Virus record (IMG/VR): IMGVR_UViG_2657245081_000006
Direction: 5' to 3' (one strand)
Source of the DNA: a virus
Taxonomy: Duplodnaviria; Heunggongvirae; Uroviricota; Caudoviricetes
Length of the DNA: 18,498 nucleotides
Below, one piece after another: positions 1-17,279 of this stretch; position 1 is the stretch's first letter; each line of letters begins with the position of its first letter. Position numbers and translations under genes: made by a program. The notes below the pieces were generated by a model. It did no database searches. It was not told the DNA's origin and was given only the letters and a program-made list of their open reading frames with translations.

Positions 1-1299
1 CTAAAGACGCATCCCCTTCCCTTTGCGATGTAGCATCAAAGAAACCAGAAACGCCACCACGGCCATCAAGGTCACATACCAGAAGAAGGCTGTTTCCATT
101 CCTATTGATTTCAGCGACAACGCTACGTACTCCGCCGAACCACCAAATATAGCATTAGCGACCGCATATGACAGACCAACGCCTAATGCGCGAACCTGTG
201 CCGGGAACATCTCAGCCTTCAGTATTCCACTGATTGATGTATAAAAACTCACTATCAGCAGGGCACACATCACCAGACCAAAAGCGGCATAAGGCGAGGA
301 AACGTTTTGCAATGCTGAGAGAATAGGAACGGTAAAAATGGCTGCCAGCGAACCGAAACATAACATTGAGGTACGGCGACCAATCTTATCCGACAGCGCG
401 CCAATGAGTGGTTGAATAAGCATGAATACAAACAATGCGGCAGTCATAATGCCACTCGCCACGTTGGCATGCATTCCCGCAGTATTTACCAGATACTTCT
501 GCATATAAGTAGTGAAGGTATAGAAACAAAGGGAGCCCGCAGCGGTAAAACCGAGAACCATGATGAATGCACGGCGATTGCGCCATAATCCTTTCAGAGA
601 TCCAGCTTCTTTTAAAGCGCGCGTTTCTTGTTGCGAAGTTTCATCTAACTGACGACGTAACCACAACGCCACAACAGCTAACACAGCTCCTAACGCGAAA
701 GGAATACGCCATCCCCACTCTCTGAGTGCAGCGTCTTCCATGGTGTGTTGTAAAACCACGACAACCAGTAGGGCTAGCAGTTGTCCGCCGATCAACGTCA
801 CATACTGAAATGATGCGTAAAAACCTTTGCGCCCTTCAACGGCAACTTCACTCATATAGGTGGCGCTGGTGCCATATTCTCCGCCAACGGATAATCCCTG
901 AAATAAACGAGCGAGAAGCAATAATGCCGGAGCCCACGTACCTATAGTTTCATAACCTGGGAGGCAGGCGATAACCAGCGATCCGAAACACATCATACAC
1001 ACCGATAACAGCATCGATTTTTTGCGACCATGTTTATCGGCTATGCGGCCAAATAGCCAACCGCCTATTGGGCGCATCAGGAATCCCGCAGCAAAAACAC
1101 CTGCTGTTTGTAGTAGTTGAGTCGTCGTGTTCCCGGAAGGGAAGAAAATGTGGGCGAAGTAGAGTGAACAGAACGAGTAGACATAGAAATCGAACCACTC
1201 GACCAGATTACCTGAAGAGGCCCCCACAATCGCCCAAATGCGGCGACGAGTATCACTACTTGTCAGTTTGCTGTCTGCCGTTACAGTACTTTCAGCCAT
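1..1299 (-). CDS. kgtP: alpha-ketoglutarate:H+ symporter, MFS transporter (432 aa)
   Basis: ORF 1..1401 translated: from the internal Met the sequence [43 protein letters not shown]... through ...HRKGKGMRL matches my recollection of E. coli KgtP. ATG is at 1297-1299 (plus 'cat'), stop TAG at 1-3. The 34 upstream in-frame codons of the track ORF are taken as non-coding. Confidence 0.9.
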
Positions 1300-1540
1300 G
1301 CCATTATGTCTCCTGCCGTAATCCGATGCTTTTGTTGGTCGCTTTTGTTTATTTCTTTTGGTAAAGAAAATGTTATACATTTGTTGCGTATCATTATGCA
1401 ACCTTAACCATGAATTTAGTTAGCAGGAAAATGGTTATTGAGGAGCTTAAGGATAAATTTCTGGTAAGGAGGACACGTATGGAAGTAGGCAAGTTGGGGA
1501 AACCGCATCCGTTGCTGAATCTGGCATATGTGGGAGTATA

Positions 1541-1674: not shown

Positions 1675-1684
1675 NNNNNNNNNN
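1675..1684. other. assembly gap (run of 10 N)
   Basis: Literal nnnnnnnnnn in the sequence; it interrupts the 5S rRNA gene where the rest of the rrn operon would be expected. Confidence 1.
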
Positions 1685-1735
1685 TGCGGGTGCTGTGTAA
1701 TGGAAATAAAAAGGCCACCTGACGTGGACACCAGA

Positions 1736-2788
1736 TTATTTCCCCACCAGCTCGTTTATCTCTTTCACTGTCTGGTTAAACCGCTCTGACTCAAGCTCAA
1801 CACCTAAGGCCCGACGCCCCAGCGCCATTGCTGCTTTTATTGTGGAACCGGATCCCATAAAAAAATCAGCAACCAGATCACCAGGTCGACTACTGGCATT
1901 GATTATTTGCCTGAGCATATCCGCCGGTTTCTCACACGGATGTTTACCCGGGTAGAACTGAACGGGTTTATGCATCCAGACATCGGTATAAGGCACGGAG
2001 ACTGATACGGAGAAATAGCGCCGGAGAGATTTAAACTCATCCAGCAATTCAGAATATTTGCGATTCAGTGAATCATAAGATGCCACCAGCTGGTGGTGTG
2101 GTTGTTCCAGTTGTTGTTCCTGAAACTTCTCTGCCGCTATACGGGAAAACAGTGCCTGTAACTTCCGATAGTCAGCCTCATTCGGCAACTGCCACTGACT
2201 GGCACCAAACCAGTGGGAAACCATATTTTTCTTACCTGTGGCTTCGGCAATTTGTTTTGCCGTTATACCCAGTTCGGCACGAGCATCCCTGAAATACGAT
2301 ATCAGCGGTGCCATTATGTGCTGTTTGAGTTCCCTTTCTTTTGCCGCATAGCCGTCACTTTTGCCGCGATATGGCCCCTGGTAATGTTCAGCAAACAGAA
2401 CGCGCTCTGTGGCAGGAAAATATGCGCGCAGACTTTCTTTATTACACCCATTCCAACGTCCGGACGGCTTCGCCCAGATGATATGGTTAAGCACGTTGAA
2501 ACGTTCACGCATCATGATCTCAATATCAGATGCCAGGCGATGCCCACAGAACAGGTAAAGGCTTCCGGCAGGTTTTAACACCCGCCAGAACTGGGCCAGA
2601 CAGTGGTCCAGCCACTTAAGGTAATCTTCGTCCCCTTTCCACTGATTGTCCCAGCCGTTGGGTTTCACCTTGAAGTACGGCGGATCGGTAACAATCAGGT
2701 CAATGGAATCATCAGGCAGGGACTGAATAAAATGCAGGCAATCAGCGTTGATTAAATCAGCACTGTTTATTTTTACAGTATTTTTCAT
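1736..2788 (-). CDS. DNA methyltransferase, N6/N4 family (beta-class, DPPY motif IV near N-terminus, FxGxG motif I near C-terminus), 350 aa
   Basis: Translation contains IDLIVTDPPYF and DFFMGSGST; typical orphan phage-type adenine/cytosine-N MTase architecture. No clear SD before the ATG. Confidence 0.8.
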   Translation of the reverse strand: MKNTVKINSADLINADCLHFIQSLPDDSIDLIVTDPPYFKVKPNGWDNQWKGDEDYLKWLDHCLAQFWRVLKPAGSLYLFCGHRLASDIEIMMRERFNVLNHIIWAKPSGRWNGCNKESLRAYFPATERVLFAEHYQGPYRGKSDGYAAKERELKQHIMAPLISYFRDARAELGITAKQIAEATGKKNMVSHWFGASQWQLPNEADYRKLQALFSRIAAEKFQEQQLEQPHHQLVASYDSLNRKYSELLDEFKSLRRYFSVSVSVPYTDVWMHKPVQFYPGKHPCEKPADMLRQIINASSRPGDLVADFFMGSGSTIKAAMALGRRALGVELESERFNQTVKEINELVGK

Positions 2789-2938
2789 GGATCAGTAAGC
2801 GTAACTCTGGTAGGCTCACTCTGCTTTTGCGCTAAAGCAGTGGGCCGTGGTTCGCTTGTGACCAGTAAGCATGAGCGAATGGCTGGCAGGTGCTACCAAC
2901 ACCCACCAGCCGCCCATTTTCACAGCAGGAAACCGCCA

Positions 2939-3166
2939 TTACTGGCAGCGTCTGAATTTATTCCCGTACCCGCCGTTATCCTTCGCCAGACCCGCCAGAA
3001 CTAACTGAGTCAGTATTAACTGGCACCGGGCTTCGCTTACTCCGGTAGTTCTCGTCATCATGCGTGGCGTTACCCACTTGTCAGCAGGTAAGAAATGAAG
3101 GACTGCGGCGGCGGTTTCTGTCATATCTTGCTGTTTTAGCATGTCTTTTTCCCTTCTGGTTAACAT
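2939..3166 (-). CDS. small winged-helix-like protein (PapI/FaeA-like by eye), 75 aa; better SD before internal Met at 3142 (67 aa)
   Basis: Motif VLHFLPADKWVTPRMMTRTTGVSEARCQLILTQLVLAGLA looks like a winged helix-turn-helix; AAGGGA precedes the ATG at 3142. Family assignment is by eye only. Confidence 0.5.
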   Translation of the reverse strand: MLTRREKDMLKQQDMTETAAAVLHFLPADKWVTPRMMTRTTGVSEARCQLILTQLVLAGLAKDNGGYGNKFRRCQ

Positions 3167-3263
3167 GACATACCAATAACTCTTGTCTAAAAATCCAGCA
3201 AGATAAAAAGTCAGTATTCACGACCACCAGCGTGTTTACTGTACTGCACCAAGTTTACAGGTA

Positions 3264-3290
3264 CAAAAAACCCGCTCAGTGGCGGGTTTA
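3264..3290. terminator. bidirectional intrinsic terminator
   Basis: aaaaaacccgc-tcagtg-gcgggttt: 5-6 bp GC stem flanked by an A-run on one side and a T-run on the other; the minus-strand reading gives gcgggtttttt. Confidence 0.6.
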
Positions 3291-3418
3291 AGTTGTGTGG
3301 CGAAGTAACCACTCTTAACACACTAATAGCATTTTTGTTATAACACAAGTAGCTCATTCAGTATTTTTAGAATCTTGACTTTCTTAAGCACGGCGAACTC
3401 TGAATACCAAACATAAAA

Positions 3419-4036
3419 TCAATTATCTTCCAGGCCGGATGCTATCAACGAAAGCCTCTCAAAAAACGCTGTAGCAGCCTTGTCCAAAGTTGAATAAGTA
3501 CTGTATTCTCCGTGTTCGGGACCAACCACTACCCATGGTCGTCTTTTTGGGATTCGGGACTTCTCAGAAATCACTGTTCCAGATATACCAATATCAATTG
3601 TTACACCTGTTATTATTTTCTCTTCATCTCTTTCCCTGAACTCAATTGCCATAAATGCCGTTTTTTTTCGTTTCCCGTTTTTAAAAAAATCAAATAAAGC
3701 AAAGCGATGCTCATTAAAATCAACACCCCATCGTCCTTCAGGATAAAGGGCATGAAAGTTGTCATTTACGCTCTGCATCGTCTCATAAGCTTTAACTTCT
3801 AAATCTCCATAGTGCATAGATACCGCGCAGGAGTCACTGGGTAACTGTATTTTCCCAAGATTGAAAACCTTTACTGCTCCAGAACTATGGCATCTTGCCC
3901 GCAATTTATCCCCATTTATACTAATCGGAGAAATATTCCTTAATGTTCCGGGCTGGCTCCCTCCTAAGTAAACGACTGTTAAAGATTGCTTATTTTCAAT
4001 TGCATCAACTAATACATGCTCTACATTTTTATCCAT
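3419..4036 (-). CDS. hypothetical protein, 205 aa, AT-rich cargo gene immediately downstream of Q (no family recognised)
   Basis: ORF 3419..4063; start moved to ATG at 4034-4036 because GGGAGG lies 5 nt upstream (MDKNVEHV...). Sampled lines are about 37 percent GC against about 60 percent in neighbouring prophage genes. Confidence 0.7.
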   Translation of the reverse strand: MDKNVEHVLVDAIENKQSLTVVYLGGSQPGTLRNISPISINGDKLRARCHSSGAVKVFNLGKIQLPSDSCAVSMHYGDLEVKAYETMQSVNDNFHALYPEGRWGVDFNEHRFALFDFFKNGKRKKTAFMAIEFRERDEEKIITGVTIDIGISGTVISEKSRIPKRRPWVVVGPEHGEYSTYSTLDKAATAFFERLSLIASGLEDN

Positions 4037-4037
4037 A

Positions 4038-4074
4038 ATAACCTCCCGATGAACAGGTATCATCAGGAGGTTAT
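4038..4074 (-). promoter_or_regulatory. 15-bp stem / 7-nt loop hairpin sequestering the Shine-Dalgarno of the 205-aa gene
   Basis: Plus strand ataacctcccgatga-acaggta-tcatcaggaggttat. In the minus-sense mRNA the arms pair over 15 bp with one G-U; the SD GGGAGG lies in the 3' arm and the stem ends 1 nt before the AUG. Confidence 0.55.
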
Positions 4075-4111: not shown

Positions 4112-4483
4112 CTATATGTAACAATCAATTTCTAAAGATACCCCCAACATTGCCAGACAACCGTCAATAAACCCTTCAGCTTTCTGCAGTCTGATAACAA
4201 CCTGATTAAGTGATATCCCCAGTTTTACCCCCAACGCCCGTAATGTAACCCCATACACATAATACATTTCCAGTAATTCGTATTGATACGGTTCCTTTTT
4301 CTTAAGAACTGTCATTGCAGAGCTAATGATCAGGCCATCGTCATCGCTACATTGCGGGCGGGATTTTACTTTCGAAGGAATTAATCCCTTAAAACCTGCA
4401 GCAACAGATGACCATTCCACATCCTCGTGATTATTTGCCACCCATGCCCCCCAACGTTCAAGAACCATTTGAATATCACGCAT
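4112..4483 (-). CDS. late-gene antiterminator Q, QuuD/phage-82 type (Phage_antitermQ family), 123 aa
   Basis: MRDIQMVLERWGAWVANNHEDVEWSSVAAGFKGLI... closely matches my recollection of DLP12 QuuD (YbcQ). Start chosen at ATG 4481-4483 with GGAGA 6 nt upstream. Confidence 0.8.
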   Translation of the reverse strand: MRDIQMVLERWGAWVANNHEDVEWSSVAAGFKGLIPSKVKSRPQCSDDDGLIISSAMTVLKKKEPYQYELLEMYYVYGVTLRALGVKLGISLNQVVIRLQKAEGFIDGCLAMLGVSLEIDCYI

Positions 4484-4500
4484 CAACTTTCTCCACAAAA

Positions 4501-6716: not shown

Positions 6717-7039
6717 ACTTTCAGGCCCCTCTCATGTAACCAGTGGGCTGCACGCAACCTGGCGTTCTCCTCACCGGCAAGCAGTGCGCGGATGATACCG
6801 ACCGCCTCGCTGTCGTCGTCCTTCACCGCGGTATGAAGCGTGATGCCCCGGGCCACGCCACGCTTTATCGTGATGACGCCTTTTTTCTCCAGTGCGCGAA
6901 GATGCTCCACCGCTGCATTCACTGAACGGTATCCCAGCATGGTTGCCACCTCCTGATTGGTTGGCGGGAAGCCACGTTCTTTCTGATAAGAAATCAGCAT
7001 ATCCAGCACCTGCTGCTGGCATTGAGTTAACGTCGTCAT
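6713..7039 (-). CDS. LexA N-terminal DNA-binding-domain-like protein (no peptidase domain), 108 aa
   Basis: LTQCQQQVLDMLISYQKERGFPPTNQEVATMLGYRSVNAAVEHLRALEKKGVI resembles the LexA winged-helix DBD; ATGA overlaps at both ends. Confidence 0.6.
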   Translation of the reverse strand: MTTLTQCQQQVLDMLISYQKERGFPPTNQEVATMLGYRSVNAAVEHLRALEKKGVITIKRGVARGITLHTAVKDDDSEAVGIIRALLAGEENARLRAAHWLHERGLKV

Positions 7040-7689
7040 GCCGCCATCTCCCTGACCAGTTTTTCTGCCTGCTGGCGAACCTGCGCCAGAAAGGCCTCAC
7101 CACATGCCTCAAGTTCATCGCGCCCGATGTAGCTGATTGCCGGTCCCTTCCAGGTCTTGTCGAAAACAGCAATAGCACCAGCGAAGAAAGCGCCTGTCGG
7201 CACCTGCTTCTCATCCTTCGGGATAAACCAGGCAGGCAGTTCAAAACCAATACGCCCGCGAATAAAAGCAATATGATCTGCATCTTCCGGCCACCACACT
7301 TCGCTGGTGGCAGCTTTGATCAGGAAAACATAGCGCCCGCCTTTATCACGCATGGCACTGGCATGCTTCATGATGTAACGCATGCCGGTGATGTATTGCC
7401 CCTCATGCTGACTGGCGCGGCTGTATGGGGGATTACCAAAGGCAGCACCTTTAAGCTCCGCAAGGCGTTCTGACCAGTCATGCGCCAGCGCGTTGTCTTC
7501 CGCCGTGTAATACGCAGCACATTTGGCGTTATCACCGTCAGTGAACAGATCCAGAACAAACGGGCCAAACAGGGTGTTAATTCCCCAGAAAATGTTGTCC
7601 GGCGTGCGCCACTGATCGCCCACTTCCTTCAGTTCATGGGCTGGTTTGTTCCGCAGTTCCGCCAGCGCCTGGCAATATTTATTACTCAT
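7036..7689 (-). CDS. phage N6-adenine DNA methyltransferase (Dam family, NPPY), 217 aa
   Basis: DQWRTPDNIF...LDLFTDGDNAKC...AFGNPPYSR; start taken at ATG 7687-7689 overlapping the upstream stop (TAATG). Track ORF 7036..7722 has 11 extra N-terminal codons. Confidence 0.85.
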   Translation of the reverse strand: MSNKYCQALAELRNKPAHELKEVGDQWRTPDNIFWGINTLFGPFVLDLFTDGDNAKCAAYYTAEDNALAHDWSERLAELKGAAFGNPPYSRASQHEGQYITGMRYIMKHASAMRDKGGRYVFLIKAATSEVWWPEDADHIAFIRGRIGFELPAWFIPKDEKQVPTGAFFAGAIAVFDKTWKGPAISYIGRDELEACGEAFLAQVRQQAEKLVREMAA

Positions 7690-8183
7690 TAAGCCCCCAC
7701 GTAATTCCCTGAGAGATACCACTCTTCACCTGATGCAGCCCGCTTACTGCTTTTCCGTAAACACCGTTCACGACGCGCCAGAAAATTGTTTCGTTCTGGC
7801 TGGGAGTGGCTTTCACGGAATGCCGCCATCCACACCGTTGCAGCACGACGGTATAAGCCCCTCGACTCCAGTTCTTCAGCCTGGCGGGTCAGGCACAAAA
7901 TCACCCGGGGGTCGTTAGTGCCGACATAGAACTTGCGCACAGGTCTGGTTTCACGAACTGGTTGTGGTTCCGGCTCCTGCGCTCTCTCAGTCAGGCGCGA
8001 GAAATGTCTGCGTGTATCTCCTTCACAACGGTGAGCCACACGCCCACTCTGACGTAACTTGCTTGCTGACTGCAGAACGCGCTGCCGTGAGTAACCTGCA
8101 AAAGCATCCGCAATGTCTCCGGAAGTACAGCCCGGATGGGCTTCAATGAATTTCTGAACTTCATTCAAAATACTCATGCTCAC
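7689..8183 (-). CDS. PerC-like transcriptional regulator (N-terminal wHTH-like region plus LYRRAATVWMAAF motif), about 162-164 aa
   Basis: C-terminal ...ESRGLYRRAATVWMAAF resembles the PerC family. First codon is GTG at 8181-8183 (overlapping the O-like stop); alternative ATG at 8177. Confidence 0.55.
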   Translation of the reverse strand: MSMSILNEVQKFIEAHPGCTSGDIADAFAGYSRQRVLQSASKLRQSGRVAHRCEGDTRRHFSRLTERAQEPEPQPVRETRPVRKFYVGTNDPRVILCLTRQAEELESRGLYRRAATVWMAAFRESHSQPERNNFLARRERCLRKSSKRAASGEEWYLSGNYVGA

Positions 8184-17251: not shown

Positions 17252-17279
17252 AAAAAACCCGCCTAAAGGCGGGTTTTCA
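17252..17279. terminator. bidirectional intrinsic terminator between the convergent early-left operon and the right-end cargo operon
   Basis: aaaaaacccgcc-taaa-ggcgggtttt; the minus-strand reading has the longer T-run. Confidence 0.65.

Follow-up and report, generated by a model that had tools for sequence, protein, structure and literature searches.

The window analysed here is the whole 18,498-nt stretch of phage DNA, and its region 1736-3348 contains a gene for a predicted winged-helix protein and a gene for an orphan adenine DNA methyltransferase, downstream of an antiterminator gene. The features are listed in the direction of transcription.

4112..4483, minus strand: late-gene antiterminator Q of the PF06530 family, distantly related to phage 21 Q (Pfam 5e-48 for 4112-4498)
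3419..4036, minus strand: WYL-like gene, an accessory gene ("moron") between Q and the late promoter region (phrog_8498, 3e-126)
3320..3348, minus strand: candidate late promoter pR', TTGTGT (3348-3343), 17-nt spacer, TAGTGT (3325-3320), found by eye
3264..3319, minus strand: short late leader (GTTAAGAGTGGTTACTTCGCCACACAACTTA), then intrinsic terminator AAACCCGCCACTGAGCGGGTTTTTT (3290-3264), read as tR'
3143..3263, minus strand: conserved untranslated leader of the small gene (sequence conservation)
2939..3142, minus strand: small winged-helix protein, 67 aa, phrog_331 (homologue alignment, AlphaFold, family matches)
2932..2949, minus strand: hairpin P0, GCTGCCA-GTAA-TGGCGGT, with the TAA stop of the small gene in its loop and a U-rich tract after it (alignment)
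2783..2929, minus strand: structured leader RNA of the methylase gene, ~147 nt (covariance model, 163.7 bits)
1736..2788, minus strand: orphan beta-class N6-adenine DNA methyltransferase, M.EcoGII family, 350 aa (Pfam, M.EcoGII alignment, solved-structure relatives)
1717..1736, minus strand: terminator-like hairpin just past the methylase stop (annotated terminator in SfV and Ayreon)
1675..1684, no strand: N gap at a scaffold join (from the letters)

The two genes and the late operon

The 350-aa open reading frame at 1736-2788 was identified as an N6/N4 methylase in an earlier, sequence-only reading of this DNA, and our analysis agrees: the protein matches Pfam N6_N4_Mtase (2e-42, residues 29-341), with DPPY at residues 34-37 and FMGSGST at residues 310-316, near the C-terminus. 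The motif order, from an N-terminal DPPY through a central target-recognition domain to a C-terminal FxGxG, is that of the beta class, and the closest solved relatives are beta-class enzymes, RsrI, CcrM, and MboIIA among them. Over its full length, the protein is identical to M.EcoGII at 281 of 349 positions (~81%, 2 gaps), the M.EcoGII sequence having been machine-read from the supplement of PMC11551740 with a few residues possibly wrong. Homologues of M.EcoGI and M.EcoGII are silent in lysogens, and the M.EcoGII family is toxic under constitutive expression (PMC5778455, PMC6602927). On the natural regulation of M.EcoGII, the published account goes no further than "not expressed in the lysogen" (PMC5778455), and neither a late-operon position nor an upstream winged-helix gene nor a structured leader appears in the descriptions of M.EcoGII in PMC5778455, PMC7544214, and PMC11551740. 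Judged by its homologues, this is an orphan methylase that is widespread and behaves in a known way; it would most likely methylate progeny phage DNA against host restriction and would be harmful to the host if made otherwise. The prophage also encodes a second, different adenine methylase, of the Dam family (PF05869, 7036-7722), as the sequence-only reading had stated.

The start of the small gene had been placed at 3166 (75 aa); it is probably at 3142 (67 aa), because all homologues start MLKQQDMTE and the RefSeq annotation is 204 nt long. A perfect 10-bp inverted repeat (3205-3196 with 3133-3124) brackets this start. The description of the product as winged-helix-like stands: AlphaFold (pLDDT 87) predicts helices at residues 4-17, 26-33, and 37-49 and strands at residues 53-55 and 63-65, a winged helix with three helices and a beta-hairpin wing. 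Its best structural matches are winged helices (TM up to 0.85, with E of only ~4e-3), its homologues are named TrmB-family, and one of them (P0049) scores above the Pfam DprA_WH cut-off. Two stretches hardly vary among the homologues: the N-terminus MLKQQDMTE and the recognition helix RCQLILTQL, the latter suggesting a conserved nucleic-acid target. A Z-DNA-binding (Z-alpha) role was considered and rejected: the best TM scores are with Z-alpha domains, but the resemblance is that of any minimal winged helix, and what we take to be the Z-alpha contact residues (an Asn and a Tyr in helix 3, and a Pro-Pro-x-Trp wing) are missing by eye.

The protein encoded upstream at 4112-4498 matches Q21 (PDB 6p18/6jnx, 2.6e-10) and is annotated as Q in the RefSeq entry of a complete genome (L001). 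The WYL-like gene that follows scores below the Pfam WYL cut-off, and its slot is variable, with opposite-strand genes there in other phages. Segment 3338-3425 is whole in only 52 genomes, and among the matches listed either the WYL-like gene or an unnamed open reading frame lies there. A strong hairpin covers the ribosome-binding site of the WYL-like gene.

A late promoter directly after Q was rejected, as this part of the window has only AT-rich weak hexamers. By its position, TTGTGT-17-TAGTGT is a plausible pR', weak by consensus and abutting the conserved transcribed leader; the consensus promoter scan left it unscored, and no pause element was identified in the window. Equivalent hexamers occur at the same position in another locus (TTTACA-16-TATGCT in L005), with a less clean fit in L028, and in Xenorhabdus and Photorhabdus loci they lie beside the Q genes. 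Across loci with PF06530-type Q, TTTAC(A/G)-16-TAT(G/T)(C/G)T is followed by a common short leader and then by the terminator.

The terminator at 3290-3264 had been called bidirectional. A hairpin with a T-run is present and points in the late direction, but bidirectionality is unconvincing, since the minus strand has GGGTTTTTTGT and the plus strand only GGGTTTAAGTTG. Phages SfV and Ayreon have a lambda-family Q gene (PF03589), then TTGCAT-17-TAAGAT with CAACGATGGG, the pause element of lambda pR', and ~50 nt later the same terminator; because of this spacing from a lambda-like late promoter, we read the terminator as a Q-antiterminated tR'. It forms the left edge of a conserved mosaic module, and homology to many phages stops exactly there; in Ayreon it is duplicated around an inserted accessory gene.

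The sequence-only reading had also made the two genes a separate cassette behind this terminator. That does not fit a terminator that is tR' in SfV and Ayreon, the silence of M.EcoGI/II homologues in lysogens, or the promoter scan, in which the stretch from the terminator to the small gene was empty; the single promoter-like site within the small gene, at 3084-3057, is not above chance expectation. In L001, the gene order is Q, WYL-like gene, terminator, small gene, methylase, holin, lysozyme, Rz, terminase, portal, capsid, and tail, and SfV, Ayreon, cdtI, mEp460, and PhiR40_1 have the same layout. A complete genome with 99.7% identity carries holin essD, lysozyme rrrD, and Rz after the methylase, and in complete genomes the holin gene begins ~70 nt beyond the post-methylase hairpin. 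The DNA left of the N gap in the window, an MFS-like open reading frame and a 5S rRNA fragment, is unlike the DNA past the methylase in complete genomes. By this comparison of gene order, the two genes are the head of a lambda-like prophage late operon and not an autonomous cassette. No endonuclease gene lies near the methylase in the complete genomes and phages, where the winged-helix and holin genes flank it; the sequence-only reading had seen no endonuclease partner before the gap, and by the complete genomes the gap conceals holin, lysozyme, and Rz.

In this reading, late transcription would start from a promoter specific to Q and would end at the 3290-3264 terminator when Q is absent. Polymerase modified by Q would pass tR', the P0 hairpin over the stop codon of the small gene, and the third hairpin past the methylase, and continue into the lysis genes, with region 1736-3348 as the operon start and the winged-helix protein and methylase as the first two late gene products. 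P0 varies in sequence while its hairpin is kept, and by inspection of the alignment it is a clear terminator in three loci (L021, L030, and L012); it appears to be a second, terminator-like barrier.

The leader of the methylase gene

The spacer between the two genes, together with the first bases of the methylase gene, encodes an RNA with the following elements, all on the minus strand.

2916-2912 with 2845-2841: helix P1
2911-2881: helix P2
2879-2874 with 2856-2851: helix P3, with loop GGUCA at 2863-2859
2840-2821: helix P4
2801-2797 and 2794-2790: start-proximal strand, CGCUU and UGAUC, followed by the AUG at 2788-2786

Across 67 distinct sequences, paired cells make up 96.5%, with compensatory changes at 19 of 27 pairs and 42 extra pair types, compared with 21.9 in shuffles (0/500) and with slid controls that are 26-45% paired; 42 independent diverged leaders that were outside model building are 90.7% paired, with 17 of 27 pairs compensatory, and counts from the alignments fitted to the model (A5 and A6) are biased toward the structure. 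The fold has a z-score of -3.4. An alternative fold is 93.5% paired, and the helix that it forms with the start region also carries compensatory changes. Its helix P1' joins AAUGGGC with ...CAU in ~70 sequences and GGUGGGC with ACCCAC in 21. In the window, the predicted energies of the two folds are -56.9 and -55.4, a gap of ~1.5 kcal/mol. Nearly all sequences are predicted to form a duplex between the loop and the start region, although it only modestly beats shuffles (median z -1.85). The partner of the loop depends on the lineage: in Enterobacteriaceae and Morganellaceae it is UGAUC, which lies before the AUG, and the diverged form uses AUGACC itself. The methylase AUG lacks an upstream Shine-Dalgarno sequence. 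A further helix, P6 (AGUGAGC with GCUUACU), was rejected as mostly broken where variable.

Two other readings of the spacer were rejected. A small peptide from the 150-nt spacer (a 35-codon open reading frame over the stop of the small gene, or an MGGWWVL open reading frame) fails because 1-nt indels shift the frame among homologues, and conservation through a role of the DNA itself, for example as a recombination joint, fails because compensatory changes maintain the helices even among sequences with only about half of their bases in common. Even if the gating proposed below is wrong, the comparative evidence makes the leader a well-supported new structured RNA family.

The leader also appears to be uncatalogued. 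Rfam 15 gave no match to the sense strand of 2783-2929 at E up to 10 and two chance-level matches to the opposite strand, and the diverged leader in locus L333 matched nothing in Rfam. No earlier description was found in the literature searched, coverage of which was incomplete; PMC10111431 has no bearing on it. The one Rfam family that aligned nearby, STnc130, did so on the opposite strand at 3161-3297 and reached 31.6 bits, well short of its gathering score (55); the terminator accounts for most of those bits.

A search model trained on methylase leaders alone found a diverged form of the leader before Mom-family, ParB-domain, and C5-methylase genes. Every RNA-based match with enough flanking sequence precedes a DNA-modification gene, or the ParB_N gene of such modules; the downstream genes encode M.EcoGII-like methylases, C5 methylases, Mom-family proteins, and ParB_N proteins. 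Among the 53 diverged-form leaders that could be classified, approximately 40 lie ahead of a Mom-family gene, or of a ParB_N gene and then a Mom-like open reading frame. Conservation of the leader ends ~15 nt into the open reading frames of these four unrelated gene families. In a pattern scan of metagenomes, nearly all matches were random; 2 of 80 model-screened loci were true, both in the standard arrangement.

Proposed control of methylase synthesis

Taken as a whole, a late-operon start with a toxic methylase behind a two-state RNA gate is probably the best explanation of the locus, and a default-off translational gate on toxic DNA-modification genes is how the two modelled folds are best read. 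In the off state, which is the predicted minimum-energy fold and would form first during transcription, the 5' AUGGGC would pair with a nearby GCUCAU (2876-2871); GGUCAC-AAGCG, left free, would then pair with CGCUU...UGAUC right before the AUG, which lacks a Shine-Dalgarno sequence. In the presumed on state, AUGGGC would instead pair with the distal GCCCA and close a three-way junction of P1, P2, and P3; P3 would take up AAGCG, and the start region would be freed. If a trigger exists, it may be a phage or host factor, with the winged-helix protein as one candidate. The locus would then be a layered lock, with up to three hairpins to be read through by Q, no Shine-Dalgarno sequence, and an RNA able to bury the start.

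Because the same RNA travels with Mom, ParB-domain, and C5-methylase genes, it may be a portable control module for anti-restriction DNA modification. The broader reading, for which we would put the chances at somewhat under even, is that the leader is an uncatalogued, widespread, two-state class that gates toxic DNA-modifying enzymes of several families in answer to a phage or host signal. It would cover, in temperate phages from Enterobacterales and their relatives, M.EcoGII-type, C5, ParB-domain methylase or ParB-plus-Mom, and Mom genes that stand at the head of a late or lysis operon.

The winged-helix protein could also be a translational activator like Com of phage Mu, binding the leader RNA and shifting it to the open fold. 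The layout is that of Mu, with a small gene upstream, an occluded start, and a toxic modification gene downstream; the leader family is also found ahead of true Mom homologues, and the invariance of the recognition helix would suit such a role. However, leader and small gene also occur apart. The small gene precedes the methylase at 56 of 76 loci, but in Xenorhabdus and Photorhabdus it accompanies a reduced leader; at least 14 loci have a methylase-type leader and no small gene, and the gene is missing from all 53 classifiable diverged-form loci, including the Mom-linked ones. Moreover, the small protein is predicted to be a winged helix, whereas Com is a zinc-finger protein, and the leader model found nothing in the Mu com-mom region (34800-36717), even with filters off. 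We therefore regard a Com-like activator as unlikely.

Less probable still is an autonomous cassette in which the winged-helix protein binds the repeats or the GATC and controls methylase transcription in the manner of a controller protein. The frequent pairing of the two genes, the likely nucleic-acid target of the recognition helix, and the hairpins on both sides of the gene pair are in its favor. The two direct repeats reported in the sequence-only reading exist, at 2790-2802 and 2860-2872 (11 of 13 bases identical) rather than at 2789-2803 and 2861-2875, and the degenerate pattern, which was drawn from these two copies, has 2 exact matches in the window compared with 0.06 expected. The GATC at 2790-2793, before the ATG, is where that reading had put it and is invariant in 43 of 43 aligned methylase-type leaders. 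Of the repeats, however, only the ATG-proximal one is generally kept (≤2 mismatches in 36 of 46 homologous loci); the distal one is kept in 13 of the 46, with ≤1 mismatch in only 2. Diverged-form leaders have no GATC, and AUGACC takes over its pairing role. The loss of the distal copy and the separate occurrence of leader and small gene argue against the proposal that the repeats are the binding site of the regulator, and what conservation there is can be better explained by the covarying RNA structure, because both copies fall within it. The absence of an endonuclease, the match of the upstream hairpin to tR' in SfV and Ayreon, the chance-level promoters downstream of it, and a winged helix in place of the Xre-type helix-turn-helix of controller proteins also count against a cassette. 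A widespread orphan methylase of known behaviour next to repeats that are not conserved is largely the outcome that the sequence-only reading had itself named as contrary to its proposal.

The same low probability applies to a functional RNA from the opposite strand, or from both strands, such as a structured antisense RNA over the start that silences the gene in the lysogen. Antisense control of toxic prophage genes is common, and the non-standard cells in the model pairs, read in the methylase sense, comprise 154 A.C and 56 G.U; the A.C cells, clustered at a few P2 and P3 positions, would be G.U on the opposite strand. The inner part of P2 and P4 show the reverse pattern, with G.U in the sense orientation, and the U-tract of the far-end hairpin is on the sense strand. 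No plus-strand promoter-like site was found at 2700-2800, and because conservation stops ~15 nt into the four unrelated families of open reading frames, there is no room for a conserved antisense promoter. On balance, and with a mixed strand signal, the leader is probably transcribed in the methylase sense.

A metabolite riboswitch (for S-adenosylmethionine or S-adenosylhomocysteine, for example) that couples methylase synthesis to its cofactor is the least probable reading. In its favor are the invariant nucleotides of the three-way junction, two folds that both covary and exclude each other, and downstream genes that are mostly for S-adenosylmethionine-dependent methylases. It is very doubtful nonetheless, as no Rfam riboswitch class matched, most classifiable diverged-form leaders are Mom-linked (directly or via ParB_N) and Mom enzymes are, to our knowledge, not S-adenosylmethionine methyltransferases, and the late-operon position favors developmental over metabolic control.

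Comparison with known systems

M.EcoGII and M.EcoGI, from E. coli O104:H4 prophages, resemble the methylase studied here in length class (349 aa, compared with 350 aa), in motif order, and in being prophage-borne without an endonuclease partner. M.EcoGII is widely used as a research enzyme for non-specific adenine methylation; by its sequence, the methylase here probably belongs with this non-specific enzyme.

As in lambda late control, a co-oriented Q gene lies upstream, followed by a short terminated leader and late genes that run into the lysis cassette. In contrast to lambda, Q belongs to PF06530 and is distant from Q21, an accessory gene parts Q from the promoter, and the leader RNA would be ~50 nt long, given the candidate promoter, compared with 194 nt in lambda. 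The prophage small RNAs AgvB, AsxR, and StxS come from the same neighbourhood, the site of accessory genes beyond pR', and are likewise short terminated transcripts downstream of pR', and the late-leader transcript here contains CACACAAC, near the GcvB target consensus CACAACA. However, neither AgvB nor AsxR of Rfam has a match here, no supplement probe from the AgvB/AsxR paper matches the leader, and the published sequences are unrelated to the late leader.

Type II restriction-modification controller (C) proteins are similarly encoded by a small gene of DNA-binding type beside a methylase gene, whereas the locus here has no endonuclease, a predicted winged helix, and no conserved operator repeats. 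The Mu com-mom operon shares with it a toxic DNA-modification gene that is expressed late, a start region within RNA structure, and a small gene upstream, and Mom homologues in other phages carry the leader family of the methylase described here. The two systems have no match in sequence or structure, and the RNA here is a four-helix, two-state element, in contrast to the single stem-loop of Mu. A portable module of this kind would be a functional analogue of Mu com-mom, unrelated in sequence and apparently far more widespread.

Leader RNA between the two genes

Both the small winged-helix gene and the methylase belong to known families, as ordinary members, and their position is of a familiar kind; the point of interest at this locus is the leader RNA between them, not the genes. 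The ~150-nt intergenic stretch is more conserved than either flanking gene, and this holds across genera with methylase identities of only 57-82%; a coding role was ruled out because homologues differ by one-base insertions and deletions. Four helices are supported in the leader:

P1: UGGGC paired with GCCCA
P2: long hairpin
P3: UUCGCU paired with AGCGAA
P4: hairpin

In a hand-made alignment, 94.8% of cells were paired (slid controls: 25-45%), and both-sided changes occurred in 11 pairs and 49 cells, compared with 4.6 and 10.4 in shuffles. Alignments A4 to A6 were fitted to a covariance model; across 67 distinct sequences, 96.5% of cells were paired and 19 of 27 pairs were compensatory, with 42 extra pair types against 21.9 expected (none of 500 shuffles was as high). 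These structures were derived from the same sequences on which they were tested; the diverged set described below is independent of model building. An Rfam search with the leader returned no match at E up to 10. The leader is a structured element with good support; to the extent that we checked, it is uncatalogued, and it is tied specifically to phage DNA-modification genes.

Modification genes downstream of the leader

We scanned viral contigs for the leader pattern without using the downstream gene, and two groups were recovered. The first contains 49 leaders like that of the window; wherever there was enough downstream DNA, an M.EcoGII-like gene came next. One member, contig L112, is a deletion remnant; its 3'-truncated leader (2135-2270) is joined to methylase residues 288-348, indicating that an internal deletion took the start region and most of the gene. 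The second group, a diverged form, comprises 62 contigs; the model, built solely from the first type, matches 60 of these leaders full-length at 32-57 bits. Among its 42 distinct sequences, 90.7% of cells are paired and 17 of 27 pairs are compensatory (slid controls: 26-50%).

Genes following the diverged leader (53 classifiable loci)
32 loci: ParB_N-domain protein, in most cases with a Mom-like ORF after it; in two, fused to an N6/N4 methylase
13 loci: Mom family
5 loci: C5-cytosine methylase
3 loci: M.EcoGII-like methylase

Examples of diverged leaders in viral contigs, between them preceding a C5-cytosine methylase, Mom-family genes, ParB_N-domain genes, and a ParB_N-methylase fusion
L090, 3298-3442
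L333, 7544-7688 (before Mom)
L328, 3036-3181
L375, 6209-6349

These unrelated genes share the first codons ATGACCA..., so the RNA module appears to take in the start codon. In L090 and L333, the two diverged-form loci with downstream ORFs listed, lysis genes come after the modification gene. L333 has a tRNA gene fragment (7450-7495) ~50 nt ahead of its leader, and the leader-Mom-lysis block therefore appears to stand at a prophage end beside the integration site.

In the window, the methylase product (350 aa) carries DPPY near the N-terminus and FMGSGST near the C-terminus, is matched by Pfam N6_N4_Mtase across its full length, and has beta-class enzymes as its closest solved-structure relatives. 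It is identical to M.EcoGII at 281 of 349 residues, based on a reference sequence machine-read from the supplement of PMC11551740. M.EcoGII is prophage-borne and methylates adenine in any sequence context; it is silent in the lysogen, and its constitutive expression is harmful (PMC5778455). In other pathogenic E. coli, homologues are predicted to lack sequence specificity, and growing cells showed no methylation that could be assigned to them (PMC6602927).

Alternative folds and functional strand

In most sequences, the predicted minimum-energy fold differs from the four-helix fold. The alternative pairs AUGGGC with nearby GCUCAU (helix P1') and GGUCAC-AAGCG with CGCUU...UGAUC, ending one or two bases ahead of the AUG. 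It is 93.5% paired, with compensatory changes of its own; P1' covaries as AAUGGGC with ...CAU in ~70 sequences and as GGUGGGC with ACCCAC in 21. In the window, the two folds differ by ~1.5 kcal/mol. No Shine-Dalgarno sequence was found ahead of the methylase AUG. Nearly all sequences are predicted to form a duplex between the P3 loop/3' strand and the start region, with a partner that varies by lineage:

Enterobacteriaceae: AAGCG:CGCUU and GGUCA:UGAUC
Morganellaceae: GGA:UCC and GAUCA:UGAUC
Diverged form: GGUCAU:AUGACC, the start codon itself

These predictions support a mechanism in which the leader would act as a default-off translation gate.

Across the model pairs in sense orientation, there are 154 A.C cells versus 56 G.U cells. 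The A.C cells, which would be G.U on the opposite strand, are concentrated at the second pairs of P2 and P3 and, in the diverged form, mid-P3; inner P2 and P4 show the reverse pattern. Context favors the sense strand: the hairpin with the U-tract is on the 5' side and the AUG at the 3' end, the loop can pair with the start region, conservation ends ~15 nt into four unrelated ORF families, and a promoter scan at 2700-2800 found no plus-strand promoter-like site. An antisense or two-strand role is the less likely reading. As for what might open a default-off gate, the small winged-helix protein is a poor candidate for a general trigger, as its gene is missing from many leader loci, including all diverged-form loci examined. 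A riboswitch sensing a metabolite or cofactor is very improbable, given the association with Mom.

Gene order and late transcription

The window DNA is E. coli, and everything right of the N gap is lambda-like prophage read on the minus strand.

1-1401, minus strand: MFS-like ORF, left of the gap
Adjoining the gap and ending at the Ns: 5S rRNA fragment
1675-1684: ten Ns, a scaffold gap joining the left part (1-1684) to the prophage
1736-1717, minus strand: hairpin downstream of the methylase
2949-2932, minus strand: hairpin after the small gene, with the TAA stop codon in its loop and a U-rich tract following
3419-4036, minus strand: WYL-like gene (phrog_8498; Pfam WYL under its cut-off)

In complete genomes, the left part does not adjoin the methylase. 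A complete genome 99.7% identical across 1685-3420 has the order Dam-type methylase, LexA-like, RusA, KilA-N, DUF968, Q antiterminator, WYL-like, small hypothetical gene, DNA methylase, holin essD, lysozyme rrrD, and Rz, then terminase, portal, capsid, and tail. The gap therefore conceals a lysis cassette and no nuclease; the sequence-only reading had seen no restriction endonuclease partner before the gap, and the second, Dam-family methylase it noted is present at 7036-7722. The module matches 1,669 of 5,426 complete E. coli genomes and occurs in phages SfV, Ayreon, mEp460, cdtI, and PhiR40_1 and in Stx2c phages.

The hairpin AAACCCGCCACTGAGCGGGTTTTTT (3290-3264, minus strand) is a good intrinsic terminator, as had been proposed, but its plus-strand tail is poor, and the proposed bidirectional function is not convincing. 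Homology to many phages ends exactly at this hairpin. In SfV and Ayreon, whose Q belongs to the lambda family (PF03589), TTGCAT, a 17-nt spacer, TAAGAT, and then CAACGATGGG lie ~50 nt ahead of the same terminator; Ayreon has two terminator copies flanking an inserted pair of small genes. With Q of the window's family, Xenorhabdus, Photorhabdus, and, less cleanly, Salmonella have TTTAC(A/G)-16-TAT(G/T)(C/G)T and G(T/A)TAAGAGTG... after the Q stop, followed by the terminator, a conserved leader, and the small gene. PhiR40_1 has the same layout after an inserted opposite-strand gene. At the equivalent place in the window, minus-strand TTGTGT-17-TAGTGT, abutting GTTAAGAGTGG, is a weak site that we infer to be the late promoter. 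Segment 3338-3425 is complete in only 52 genomes and adjoins the WYL-like gene wherever that ORF is named. Between terminator and methylase, a promoter scan found a single consensus-level site, at or below chance expectation. We conclude that the two genes are most probably the first late genes under Q antitermination, not the separate cassette once suggested. The hairpins at 2949-2932 and 1736-1717 would add insulation without Q.

Both direct repeats are present (2790-2802 and 2860-2872). The proximal copy is kept in 36 of 46 homologous loci and the distal copy in 13, closely in only 2, so the pair is not a conserved feature. The cassette-and-operator model is mostly wrong.

The small protein is winged-helix-like, as first proposed: AlphaFold with 21 homologues predicted three helices and a two-strand wing (pLDDT 87), and its top structural hits are winged helices of the minimal type (TM up to 0.85, E only ~4e-3). 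It belongs to phrog_331; some homologues are labeled TrmB-family, and one exceeds the DprA winged-helix cut-off. Because homologues all begin MLKQQDMTE and the RefSeq annotation is 204 nt, the start is most likely 3142 (67 aa). An HMM search placed the gene immediately ahead of the methylase in 56 of 76 loci, which range from Escherichia to Proteus and Xenorhabdus. A perfect 10-bp inverted repeat (3196-3205/3124-3133; UAUCUUGCUG/CAGCAAGAUA on RNA) flanks its ribosome-binding site and start, and may account for DNA-level conservation of the first codons (MLKQQDM); in other loci, changes are few and those seen are compatible with pairing. Nearly all loci keep the 2932-2949 hairpin, with differing sequences, and in some (L021 and L030) it is clearly a terminator; in principle, translating the small gene could modulate it.

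Elsewhere, the slot between Q and the late promoter region is hypervariable; the WYL-like gene fills it in the window, whereas in cdtI, PhiR40_1, and vB_EcoS-569R4 it is taken by unrelated genes on the opposite strand, with a hairpin directly after Q. In the window, a strong 13-bp hairpin, AACCTCCTGATGA...TTCATCGGGAGGTT (4040-4072, minus strand), lies ~40 nt past the Q stop codon and encloses the WYL-like gene's ribosome-binding site GGGAGG. At 17252-17275 (minus strand), the prophage has another terminator whose core, AACCCGCCTTTAGGCGGGTTTTTT, is similar to that of the 3290-3264 terminator. On the plus strand, 3161-3297 is a weak full-length Rfam match to the Salmonella sRNA STnc130 (31.6 bits; gathering score 55). 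The match runs antisense to the leader of the small gene and ends at the 3290-3264 terminator, with promoter-like ATGACA-18-AAAAAT at 3165-3194; it could be a convergent antisense sRNA like those reported from prophage accessory-gene sites, or chance.

One diverged-locus Mom gene has 69% DNA identity to Mu mom; the com-mom region of Mu itself does not match the leader model. The segment from candidate promoter to terminator (3291-3319, minus strand) contains CCACACAAC, which resembles CACAACA, the GcvB target consensus that the prophage anti-sRNA AgvB uses; the segment matches neither the Rfam AgvB/AsxR models nor their published sequences. The sequence that follows TAAGAT in SfV and Ayreon is identical to the lambda pR' pause element.
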